64,000 nt of DNA from Escherichia phage PA27, in sequence record KP682380.1; one strand, given 5' to 3'. This document shows, in pieces, positions 9,001-12,000 of the stretch. The position numbers are program-made. Each line of letters begins with the position of its first letter. Positions within the stretch are counted from its first letter, which is position 1.

Positions 9001-12000
9001 AAGACCACTCGTGATGGGGTTGGCCTGTGTAGTTTGTCGGAGCTAATCGCCTCCTGACTTTGCAGGTTTGCGCGACGAGCTCTACGGCGAGAAGCTGCGG
9101 TGCCTTTAAATTCTGTTTTTCTGGACATAGATTCCTCCCGAATAAACTTTGGCGATGCAATCTCGAAGCTCCTCCTGAGACGGTTGCTTCGGCATTGCAT
9201 CCCACAGCTTATGTGGTTGGGTGATCTGGCTTTTCAGCCACGTAGTCGAGAGTCGACGTTGTTTAAAGAGCCTGCCAGTCTGTTCCATTTGGCTTCCAGC
9301 GTCCTGCTGATGGTTAAATAGTACGATATGTACTTCACTTGGTCAATACAATTTGTTCTAAAACGGGGCGTTTTTTTACAACGCTTTGTATTTAATAGTA
9401 TTGTTTTTTAGCGTGGGTGTATTGCCTCGGCGATGTAAGGAGAGATCAGAATTGCGTTGTTTAGTGAGTTGTATCTATTTATTTTCCAATAAATACAATT
9501 GGTTATGTGTTTTTTTGGGCGAGAGGAAAAGAAAACCCGGCATGGAGGCCGGGTTGATGATTAGCGGTGTGGCCTTGAGCGATAATGCTCACACACATGT
9601 TCAAGATTTCCATGCCTTATCCGTTCATAGGCATTCACATGAACTTCTCGATCGAATTGGTCATTCAAATTGTATGTAGACATCTGTGTTTTCTCATATT
9701 GGCGGCAGCCCTACAACCGCTTGAAAAAATGTACCAGACGCGCTAAGGTTACATCGCAAATATTGTGTACCTTAACAAGGGCTCCTTTTGGAGGCTCTGG
9801 TTAAACAGCATCAATGTCGGACTGGGGAGTTGGACATTGTGCTGAATGCTTTTGCATTATTGAGGCCGAACGTAAACCTTCAGAATTGAAGAGATGCGTT
9901 CGGCTTCTTCGTTTGTGATATCGTTAGGAATGCCTTTAATCGTTACTGTAACCCCTGATTCAGGTCGAAGAACTACTGGAAGATCATAGGTATGAAGTGC
10001 ATTAGCCTTGCCTTCGACTTTTGTTGGTTCGCCAGTCAAATCTTTTTCCTCACTGGATTCTTTGTCAATCGGAGTGTATGGGATTTCTTCACCAGACTGG
10101 AAAGCTACAAACTTTTTGATTGCACTTTCCATGCGGCTTTTATATGCAGTAATGCTGCTGTCGCTAGGCTTCGGCTCAGTTGCGTTGATGTATCGCTCGG
10201 CAAGCTCATTCACATCAAGCTGAGTAACATCACCCATTTCCTCTTCTTGGACTACCGTTAAGAGGCGAGCGGATGAGTTTTTTAAATTTCGAGCGGTGGC
10301 CTCCTTCATTATGTTCAGCGACATAAGCTCTTCAAGGAAGTCCTTGAATGCCTGCACGCTAACGTTTGACTTTGCCATTTGCTCTCTCTCTAAGTTATTG
10401 ACTCAGATCGAGTTTATCCAGGAATTGATTTGCATGCAAGACTCAAGTCTTGAGAATTTCCGTTCAAGATCCACTCTCAATAAAAAAGGCCGCACCTCTG
10501 CGACCTTTCATCTCCTAAATCTCTTTTCTCTTACCTAAAGAAACAGCAGGCTGGGTCAGCCCTAACAACTTCAAGTGCATCGGTCAGAGAAAGCTCCGTG
10601 CTATACAGGTGTTATTTCATATCTTTTTGCATCCAATAAATTTTCCATCTGTCCAGAGAGCGGATGCACTTGATTCTTGTTGATGGCAGGACGTTTTTTC
10701 ACCTGCCTCACCCTGCCATACAGGACGCTGCTCACCGATATCTATCGTCCGGTCATTGATGTTATAGACAATATCCAGATCATTACGGATATACTCAGAT
10801 GGCCTTATGCTTTCAATGAATAGATGAACTTCTTTTTGACCGCTTGATACTCATGGCCATTAAACTCCATCTATCCTCTTTACCCAAACGTCTCTTCAGG
10901 CCATTGGCTGGCGATAACTTTCCCCACAACGGAACAACTCTCATTGCATGGGATCATTGGATATTGCGGGTTTAGTGGTTGTAGAAACACCTGACCGCTA
11001 TCCCTGATCAGTTTCTTGAAGGTAAATTCATCACCACCAAGTCTGGCTATGCAGAAATCGCCGGGCTCAACAGCTTGCTCAGGGTCAACCAGAATTAACA
11101 TCCCGTCAGGAAAACTAGGTTTGGAACCTGTTGGTGCGGTCATTGAGTTACCTTCAACCTCAAGCCAGAATGCAGAGTCACTGGCTTTTTTGGTTGTGCT
11201 TACCAATCTCTCCGCATCACCTTTGGTAAAGGTTCTGAGTTCTGGAGAGAACATCCCAGCCTGAACATGAGAAAAAACAGGGTACTCATATTGTTTTTTA
11301 ACTGGGGCCGATGAGTATTCGCCAACAGGTGAAAATGTCCCGTCGTGGTTGAATGATATGTTATCAATACCAAGGTATTTAAACACCACACCAATATCAC
11401 TAAGAGATGGATGACGAGATCCGCGCAACCAGTGTCCAATTCCACCCTGCGTCATACCTAGCTCTTCGGCTAACTTCTCTTGAGTTATGCCGAGCTCTTT
11501 CATTCTGGATCTAGCCAGTTCATACCATTTCATTTTCATGTCCTTATTATTACGCTCTGTACTGGAACCATCCATGCACAATGTGTATTTTTACTTGTAT
11601 TTGAGAAGTACATATTGTATTTTTTTATTCGTGGTTACTATGGAGGGCATATGAGCAACCTACGAAAATATCGAGAGTCACTGAATATCTCTCAAACAAC
11701 ACTTGCTAAGGCAGTTGGATGCACACAGGGAGCTATCGGACATTGGGAATCTGGTCGTCGCTTCCCAGACCTTAAAACATGCCGTGCTCTTGTTGCGTGT
11801 CTAAACAAGTTAGGCGCAAAAGTAAGTCTTGATGACGTGTTCCCGCCGGAGCACAAAGCCGCTTAATAAGCGGAGCCGCTCTTTGTAACAACGGACATTC
11901 GTCCTACGTCGCTGAAAAGCGAGTCCCAAGATATCTGACCAACTAAGGCCATATGCGTTTCCACGCATACCTTTCAACTAGCTATTCACTATTGGAAATC

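Follow-up and report, generated by a model that had tools for sequence, protein, structure and literature searches.

The stretch between the repressor gene cI and N is where lambda carries rexA and rexB and where phage 933W carries stk, which raises the question of what gene fills the same place in an Stx2 phage and what that gene does. Here we address this question for Escherichia phage PA27, of which a window of 64,000 nucleotides (sequence record KP682380.1, one strand) was analysed. The window is the Stx2 prophage Sp5/VT2-Sakai type of Escherichia coli O157:H7; its positions 9300-10900 are 100% identical to VT2-Sakai/Sp5-type Stx-converting phages, with 43 phage records at least 99% identical. 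On the minus strand the order (AP000422) is cI, about 500 bp, an open reading frame (ORF) of 173 amino acids (aa) referred to here as ORF173, the small gene H0092, a terminator hairpin, the operators OL1-3 with pL, nutL and N. Our comparisons indicate that ORF173 and H0092 form a mobile accessory cassette, a 'moron', within an exchangeable slot of Sp5 that runs from cI to a tImm-like terminator. The ORF173 gene was already annotated and is mentioned in two papers; new here are a predicted fold, the family and a predicted mechanism.

Exchangeable cargo between cI and a tImm-like terminator

The following features were assigned in the slot (window coordinates):

9557..10881, minus strand: exchangeable cargo (DUF3024 remnant, terminator, promoter, ORF173, hairpin, H0092), delimited by the homology breaks with prophages L088 and L089
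9525..9555, minus strand: intrinsic terminator 2, tImm-like, with a hairpin at 9534-9555 and a T-tract; conserved backbone
10479..10509, minus strand: intrinsic terminator 1, with a stem at 10488-10505, a GAGG loop and a T6AUU tail (T6 at 10482-10487)
9857..10378, minus strand: ORF173, also ECs1184 (ECs_1184), Sp5 ORF23, H0093 or VT2-Sap23; 173 aa, PHROG 2602
9812..9839, no strand assigned: 28-nt hairpin immediately past the stop codon of ORF173
9561..9683, minus strand: H0092, 40 aa, His/Cys-rich, MSTYNLNDQFDREVHVNAYERIRHGNLEHVCEHYRSRPHR; annotated in AP000422
10537..10870, minus strand: DUF3024 pseudogene with two frameshifts and one in-frame stop

Two prophages that share the immunity region of the window delimit the slot. 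Their cI/OR segments are 98.7% (L088) and 97.3% (L089) identical to that of the window, and identity is 93% over the segment from N through OL as far as the distal hairpin, whereas homology with both ends at 9555/9556 and restarts at 10882, the cI stop codon. As homology with prophages of near-identical cI breaks off precisely at these two points, the cI stop and the distal hairpin, positions 9557-10881 are exchangeable cargo, and the slot behaves as an accessory or defence hot spot. The distal hairpin itself is common to L088 and L089 and homology ends there, which therefore marks it as a conserved backbone element, equivalent by position to tImm and outside the cargo. Both prophages carry unrelated two-gene cassettes instead: a 185-aa protein with a DUF1828 protein, matching the PADLOC candidate PDC-M24A/B, in L088 (2153-3459), and a pair of 283 and 163 aa without any match in L089 (2019-3399). 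The slot of L084 (4441-5945) begins with a DUF6932 protein (PDC-M63A match) followed by a 309-aa protein, and the Stk kinase in the slot of 933W matches PD-T4-6/mad6. An earlier note on this DNA, made from the sequence alone, had placed a rex-equivalent slot here, and this holds: the geography between cI and OL/pL/nutL/N is the same, and relatives fill it with other cassettes, several of which match known or candidate defence models.

Both hairpins that the note had proposed, at about 10480-10506 and 9531-9556, were recovered. Terminator 1 folds with a free energy of -17.8 kcal/mol (z -4.66, 0 of 200 shuffles folding as well); its hairpin is conserved upstream of the ORF173 homologue of Salmonella phage Oslo, and L039 and L090 have hairpins of equivalent function. 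Terminator 2 (-14.3 kcal/mol, z -4.1, again 0 of 200 shuffles) is annotated in AP000422 as 'putative rho independent terminator for pRM transcript', was picked up by a generic scan, and keeps an invariant stem with a variable loop in four homologous loci. The generic scan returned four terminators in the region against 2.7 expected from shuffles and missed hairpin 1, and for this reason the support for the terminators lies in the fold z-scores and in conservation. One further hairpin reported by the scan, at 10548-10562, folded no better than shuffles (z -1.3) and was discarded.

Two details of the earlier picture had to be revised. The first is that ORF173 is not flanked directly by the second terminator, as the 28-nt hairpin (9812-9839) and H0092 (9561-9683) lie between them. 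Comparison of this hairpin among the window, L041, L079 and L084 showed that it is flipped between Sp5/L084 and Oslo/L079, with 27 of 28 positions identical in reverse complement and 20 of 28 in direct alignment; it appears to have undergone a small palindrome-mediated inversion that keeps the hairpin.

The second concerns the roughly 500 bp downstream of cI, which had been taken for non-coding DNA and instead contain a decayed gene. Positions 10487-10878 share about 81% DNA identity with a segment downstream of cI in Stx phages of the 933W/phi24B type and in Salmonella phage ST160, where it is annotated as DUF3024; the gene is intact in the 933W-type phages, ST160 and Proteus prophages. When the intact 113-aa 933W-type protein (PF11225, E 1e-30) was compared with the window by tblastn, it aligned in three successive frames with 81-83% identity (E 4e-44) and a lysine codon changed to a stop; 10537-10870 is thus a dead DUF3024 gene with no intact frame. 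DUF3024 is a very common companion of cI. The 933W-type homology covers 10487-10878 and the Oslo homology 10379-10506; they overlap only in the hairpin, and thus the DUF3024 and ORF173 modules meet inside terminator 1. We read the cargo as a composite, with ORF173 as an autonomous cassette within it.

The mobility of this cassette is indicated by its presence in other accessory sites, behind Q and next to int. In a Pseudescherichia vulneris prophage (L090; CP086374, 3310-4126), ORF173 and H0092 homologues of 83% and 87% identity lie between the antiterminator gene Q and the lysis genes, with their own terminator, palindrome and promoter; in Stx phages, stx occupies this late 'moron' site downstream of Q. 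In L079, a more distant ORF173 homologue (37% identical) and H0092 adjoin an integrase gene. Close relatives of ORF173 occupy the cI-N slot of Proteus, Morganella, Providencia, Serratia and Salmonella prophages. In phage Oslo the homologue (77.5% identity) directly follows cI, and Proteus and Morganella prophages show the intact order cI-DUF3024-ORF173-N. Distant relatives adjoin tape-measure and virion genes, integrases, a P22-type antirepressor, a DNA methylase or an FRG-domain gene. These positions are typical accessory sites. P0220 (L016; GCA_040384225.1, 4791-12570), likewise a distant relative, is found at the very edge of an element that interrupts a Mg-chelatase/comM-like gene and encodes serine recombinases.

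ORF173 and H0092 as genes

The 173-aa frame at 9857-10378, on the strand of cI, and its acidic character (isoelectric point 4.85) were as the earlier note had described them. It is annotated as H0093 in AP000422 and as ECs_1184 ('prophage Sp5') in the Sakai chromosome, and is 100% identical across the 43 Stx-phage records. Its ratio of non-synonymous to synonymous substitution rates (dN/dS) is 0.14-0.24 against four homologues with 54-77% aa identity, and it is thus a real gene under purifying selection. Among 5426 complete E. coli genomes, 234 carry ORF173, always at 99% identity or more. This is about the number of E. coli records (235) in which the cI/OR segment is at least 99% identical; 979 further records carry a cI/OR segment of 80-99% identity, and none of these contains ORF173. 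With query coverage of at least 80% required, the cI/OR segment is found in 778 records in all, 543 of them from among the 979.

H0092 has the motif VHVxxYERIRxGNLEHVCEHxRSRP and has been dropped from the RefSeq annotation. The proportions of non-synonymous and synonymous differences (pN and pS) are 0.02 and 0.28 against Oslo, and 0.13 and 0.86 against L079, in which three codons are inserted in frame; H0092 is conserved under strong purifying selection. In Sp5, Oslo, L079 and P. vulneris it follows ORF173 or its homologue with an unvarying gap of about 170 nt; in the window the spacer is 174 nt long and contains the hairpin. The pairing is frequent and not obligatory, because in L084 H0092 is intact although only 19 codons of ORF173 are left next to it, and most ORF173 relatives (those of Proteus and Serratia, and all distant ones) have no H0092. 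The H0092 product is hydrophilic; PADLOC and NCBIfam returned nothing for it, no toxin family matched, and a homologue search gave 3 proteins only. A 36-aa ORF with the H0092 motif was observed in Ralstonia P2-like phages (L087, 2185-2295), downstream of an ImmA/IrrE-like (HELGH) gene.

A predicted two-domain protein with a recombinase core-binding-like fold

Three regions were distinguished in an AlphaFold2 model of ORF173 built from 51 homologues (mean predicted local distance difference test score, pLDDT, of 79.8):

10094..10357, minus strand: N-terminal four-helix domain, aa 8-95, with a tyrosine-recombinase core-binding (SAM-like) fold as modelled
9995..10075, minus strand: acidic disordered linker, aa 102-128 (103-126 in the model), pLDDT below 50, of variable length in the family
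9875..9991, minus strand: C-terminal beta-hairpin and helix mini-domain, aa 130-168, where conservation within the family is highest

The modelled helices of the N-terminal domain (residues 8-21, 26-40, 56-66 and 73-95) have pLDDT values of about 90, and the C-terminal beta-hairpin (130-138/143-151) and helix (156-168) reach the same level with this deeper alignment. We consider it probable that the N-terminal domain adopts a recombinase core-binding-like fold, the nearest examples being the core-binding domains of the tyrosine recombinases lambda Int (2oxo), XerD (1a0p) and IntI4 (2a3v), and PDB entry 3nrw. ORF173 differs from the tyrosine recombinases in that it lacks the catalytic domain and its RKHRH-Y site, its domain is not basic, and its resemblance stays below the Pfam threshold and is not significant in Foldseek. 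No PF00589 catalytic domain was found in ORF173 or in 56 diverse relatives, and only about 45 residues follow the linker; with the catalytic domain missing, ORF173 is not a recombinase and should be unable to recombine DNA. Together with the beta-hairpin/helix mini-domain, the modelled N-terminal domain would represent a new architecture among recombinase-derived DNA-binding proteins.

The earlier note had recognised no motif in the protein, and this stands for sequence searches, since ORF173 has no above-threshold match in Pfam, NCBIfam or PADLOC; it does not stand for structure prediction, which gives the core-binding-like domain. A Foldseek search of the model against the PDB and BFVD returned nothing at E ≤0.001, the C-terminal mini-domain included. 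A search of the ORF173 profile against the PDB yielded RPN8 alone, a spurious match through the low-complexity linker. The model contains no membrane-type helices, only short amphipathic ones (no transmembrane predictor was run).

ORF173 belongs to a large family. It matches PHROG 2602, labelled 'unknown function', over residues 1-173 of 173 (E 3.5e-102), as do all 56 of the diverse relatives, and a separate PHROG, 36396, matches the C-terminal mini-domain in 48 of the 56. A profile search of 1.8 billion cluster representatives gave at least 651 relatives at E ≤0.001, of which 243 reached E ≤1e-10. In addition, 44 cluster representatives are close relatives. The best 150 of the 651 relatives are all 110-238 aa long, nearly all of them 157-208 aa, and match end to end, pointing to a stable stand-alone two-domain architecture. 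R138, P151 and E158 are invariant in the 56 relatives; T28 in helix 2 (within TARNLKNS in the close subfamily) and Y79, R82 and F90 in helix 4 are invariant or nearly so. The conserved C-terminal motif is P134..R138..P151-x-D-L-T..E158-A, and its form IPxD(I/L)TxEEAERI may resemble the first helix of recombinase catalytic domains such as that of XerD.

Several known proteins offer a comparison. FliZ of E. coli is similar in size (183 aa) and likewise has an integrase core-binding domain without a catalytic domain. This stand-alone domain makes FliZ a sequence-specific DNA-binding repressor (PMC3367168), and by analogy FliZ would be the best functional precedent for ORF173. The two proteins differ in that the FliZ domain is C-terminal (aa 90-163) and matches Phage_int_SAM_1 with E 8e-15, while that of ORF173 is N-terminal and sub-threshold; FliZ is also chromosomal, belongs to the flagellar regulon and lacks the beta-hairpin/helix domain, whereas ORF173 is a phage moron. 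An hhalign comparison of the ORF173 family with FliZ was not significant (probability 1%). The prophage repressors MrpR (YopR) of SPbeta and SroF of phi3T, from Bacillus phages, are about 320 aa long and have the whole recombinase fold, so that the likeness of ORF173 to them is weak and confined to the core-binding domain.

A predicted promoter with a candidate operator

Upstream of ORF173, on the distal side of terminator 1, the following elements were assigned:

10405..10439, minus strand: candidate sigma-70 promoter of ORF173, with -35 TTGCAT (10434-10439), a 17-nt spacer and -10 TAAACT (10411-10416)
10406-10409, minus strand: GATC directly following the -10; a further GATC lies at 10468-10471
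10437..10452, no strand assigned: 7-2-7 palindrome CAAGACTTGAGTCTTG, overlapping the -35; candidate operator, its binding a prediction
10382-10390, minus strand: Shine-Dalgarno-like GAGAGAGAG of ORF173

A block of about 90 bp downstream of terminator 1 is conserved together with the gene in Oslo, L039, Proteus and the Pseudescherichia prophage. Within it, the promoter-like element keeps its position in Oslo, L039, Proteus (TTGCAA-17-TAGAAT) and L090 (-10 TAGAAT), and it is from this positional conservation that the promoter is predicted. The palindrome is identical in Oslo and is replaced by a 6-1-6 version, AAGACTTAGTCTT, in L039 and by AGACTAAGTCT in L090. A position-weight matrix for CI operators, built from the six annotated operators (which score 14-20 bits), found no operator at the ORF173 promoter. 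Since a strong terminator lies upstream, a promoter-like element is conserved and no CI-operator site is present, ORF173 is probably insulated from cI and driven by its own predicted promoter, and not by read-through from pRM.

GATC is 5.4-fold enriched in the upstream regions of the family (1.76 vs 0.32 per 100 nt), as counted in the upstream 100 nt of 25 loci (e.g. L052, L061, L070 and L012) that are not all independent. In distant relatives, CGATCG palindromes often lie over a TTGATC -35. This enrichment points to autoregulatory operators, to Dam-sensitive promoters, or to both.

Expression and deletion of ORF173

Two publications bear on the role of ORF173. Mondal et al. (2016; PMC5155283) applied sacB allelic exchange systematically to a K-12 Sp5 lysogen and obtained 43 in-frame deletions, but none of ORF21 (ECs1180) or ORF23 (ECs1184); ECs1184 is thus one of only two early-region genes that proved undeletable, and 'no conserved domains' were reported for it. 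This failure is negative, uncomplemented evidence, and a technical or cis cause is possible: ORF21 and ORF23 flank pL/OL-N, and this segment would therefore be included in the homology arms used for either construct. In a 2025 paper in Nucleic Acids Research (PMC7618764), native ECs1184 was found among the RNA-associated proteins when Sakai was grown without inducer in MEM-HEPES, at a false discovery rate (FDR) of 0.065, and over-expression of ECs1184 was tolerated. The recovery of the native protein without inducer implies that it is made in lysogen cultures, with the reservation that some of the cells induce spontaneously. The expectation in the earlier note that the gene is expressed in the lysogen is therefore borne out for uninduced Sakai cultures; the pRM read-through for which the note suggested a check is unlikely, as the gene probably uses its own promoter behind a terminator.

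Possible roles of the cassette

The reading that we favour, tentatively and with slightly less than even confidence in its three parts taken jointly, is that ORF173 binds DNA sequence-specifically, regulates itself through the promoter palindrome and blocks a DNA transaction in trans. ORF173 would act by binding, most likely to specific DNA sequences, through the conserved polar and basic faces of helix 2 (TARNLKNS) and helix 4 (YKSR), which would be the equivalents of the DNA-contacting helices in core-binding domains. The C-terminal mini-domain would provide dimerisation or contact with a partner, and binding to the promoter palindrome would give autoregulation. Acting in trans, the protein may block transcription, site-specific recombination or replication, and the target of the block may be the host, its own prophage or an incoming element. 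The biological role could lie in exclusion or defence, in host regulation or in prophage stability.

Several observations weigh against this proposal. The Phage_int_SAM_1 match of ORF173 is sub-threshold (E 0.047, aa 12-93), as are those of its relatives, which go down to 3.6e-4 in 3 of 56. The N-terminal domain is not basic (net charge -2 here, family mean -0.9), and the linker has a net charge of -5 in the ORF173 subfamily vs a family average of +3; a non-basic domain with an acidic linker is unusual for a DNA binder and counts against a simple DNA-binder model. The promoter is only weak to moderate by consensus and was not called by the generic scan, and the palindrome could be bound by another factor. 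Finally, a simple accessory regulator does not explain the failed deletion of ECs1184.

The strongest rival, which we regard as possible though less likely, is the one put forward in the earlier note, that ORF173 is a superinfection-exclusion or abortive-infection factor replacing rexAB or Stk. ORF173 shares with lambda rexA/rexB and 933W stk the slot from the cI stop to a tImm-type terminator and expression in the lysogen, and in close relatives this slot holds PDC-M24, PDC-M63A-like and Stk (PD-T4-6/mad6) cargo. The moron architecture with its own predicted promoter and terminators, the patchy, mosaic distribution over accessory sites of unrelated temperate phages and the presence of the protein without induction are all in keeping with such a role, which is also compatible with the DNA-binding mechanism described above. 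However, ORF173 has no sequence or domain relation to RexA, RexB or Stk, is insulated by a terminator with an apparent promoter of its own, and has neither a RexB-like membrane partner nor a kinase. PADLOC gave no match for it and, among the 56 relatives, six different single weak matches that amount to noise; no effector-like domain (nuclease, kinase, TIR, membrane segment or NTPase) is present; and a pure defence gene should be deletable, which is at odds with the reported failure (PMC5155283). What survives of the earlier proposal of a prophage defence gene is thus the slot and its alternative defence-type cargo, with nothing consistent from PADLOC in the ORF or its relatives, and a defence role is plausible from position only.

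A broader view, to which we give a low probability, is that ORF173 and H0092 are the first of a new class of prophage accessory systems built on a catalytically empty core-binding domain. They would form a mobile pair with a DNA-binding product that either stabilises lysogeny or acts as an addiction module in Shiga-toxin phages, or that counters phages and other mobile elements, sensing or blocking foreign DNA by site occupancy and not by an enzymatic attack. Within this view the conserved promoter GATC sites and CGATCG palindromes suggest a switch sensitive to Dam methylation, and the Sp5 lysogen could be one that cannot tolerate loss of the cassette product.

Slightly less probable still is a lysogeny-maintenance factor that keeps Sp5 repressed or integrated, its loss inducing or killing the lysogen, as Mondal et al. 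(2016) proposed. That evidence is negative only and uncomplemented, and the presence of pL/OL-N in the arms of both constructs allows a technical or cis cause. Moreover, none of the 979 records with a cI/OR segment of 80-99% identity has ORF173, and an 83% identical copy lies behind Q, far from any repressor; near-identical cI prophages without the gene and the copy behind Q also weaken a co-repressor role. Distant relatives sit beside tail or int genes.

We find it improbable that the cassette is an addiction pair, with H0092 as a small toxin and ORF173 as the antitoxin or repressor that binds DNA, so that deletion of ORF173 alone is lethal. In favour of such a pair, ORF173 and H0092 occur side by side in four contexts, always about 170 nt apart, the promoter has a palindrome, and a DNA-binding domain, flexible linker and small C-terminal domain resemble type II antitoxins; such a pair would also explain the failed deletion, because H0092 was unannotated in the record used and hence left intact. 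Yet H0092 is intact in L084, where ORF173 is reduced to 19 codons, most relatives have no H0092, the genes are uncoupled, with 174 nt and a hairpin between them, and H0092 is a hydrophilic protein of 40 aa without a toxin-family match; no known antitoxin family was matched either.

Very unlikely, in our view, is a modulator or decoy of tyrosine recombinases that occupies core sites or binds Int or Xer and so controls integration, excision or dimer resolution. The core-binding-like fold fits this, as would the possible likeness of the C-terminal motif to a catalytic-domain helix, and some relatives adjoin int or sit at element ends, but homologues of 72-83% identity occur in different genera with different neighbouring modules (integrases were not compared), and for ORF173 no sequence-level relation to Sp5 Int and no PF00589 signal was found.

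An RNA-binding protein is the least credible candidate, as the near-significant enrichment in the RNA-associated proteome (FDR 0.065) is offset by a polynucleotide kinase (PNK) assay in which the signal of over-expressed ECs1184 matched that of the sfGFP control, and the authors themselves conclude that it is no strong RNA binder (PMC7618764).

Neighbouring genes and sites

Context features outside the cargo were as follows:

10880..11533, minus strand: cI repressor gene, HTH_3 (Pfam E 1e-28) and Peptidase_S24 (2e-10); annotated in AP000422 and NC_002695
9319..9393, no strand assigned: operators OL1-3 and pL, as annotated in AP000422
8546-8797, minus strand: ORF21/ECs1180, 83 aa, PHROG 2471, without a domain, just downstream of N

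The cI frame is open as far as a TTG at 11581 (233 aa); the ATG at 11533 (217 aa) is the start annotated in all records. The best unannotated matches to the CI-operator matrix in the whole 64 kb are at 9491-9507 (11.6 bits), between the tImm hairpin and OL3, and at 8767-8783 (11.4 bits), at the 5' end of ORF21, with scores barely above the background maxima. ORF21 gave no match in PADLOC or NCBIfam, and in the other loci examined ORF21 and ORF173 are not found together. A search of 8800-12000 against Rfam at a permissive threshold returned a single match, to GadY (20 bits against a gathering threshold of 45, E 0.85), which we attribute to chance driven by the terminator. AsxR and the other published small RNAs of Sp5 map elsewhere, 3' of stx2.

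Implications

Prophage stability controls toxin release, and Sp5 is the phage that carries Stx2a in the Sakai outbreak strain. What has been gained here is a predicted core-binding-like fold for ORF173, a family of at least 651 clusters with a constant two-domain architecture, a predicted promoter with a candidate operator, and exact boundaries of the cargo in a slot otherwise filled by defence genes. If ORF173 were an ordinary small regulator, the result would be a modest one. If it is indeed a DNA-binding exclusion or stability factor, a non-enzymatic, integrase-derived module would join the accessory functions of prophages, and this could bear on the induction of Stx phages.

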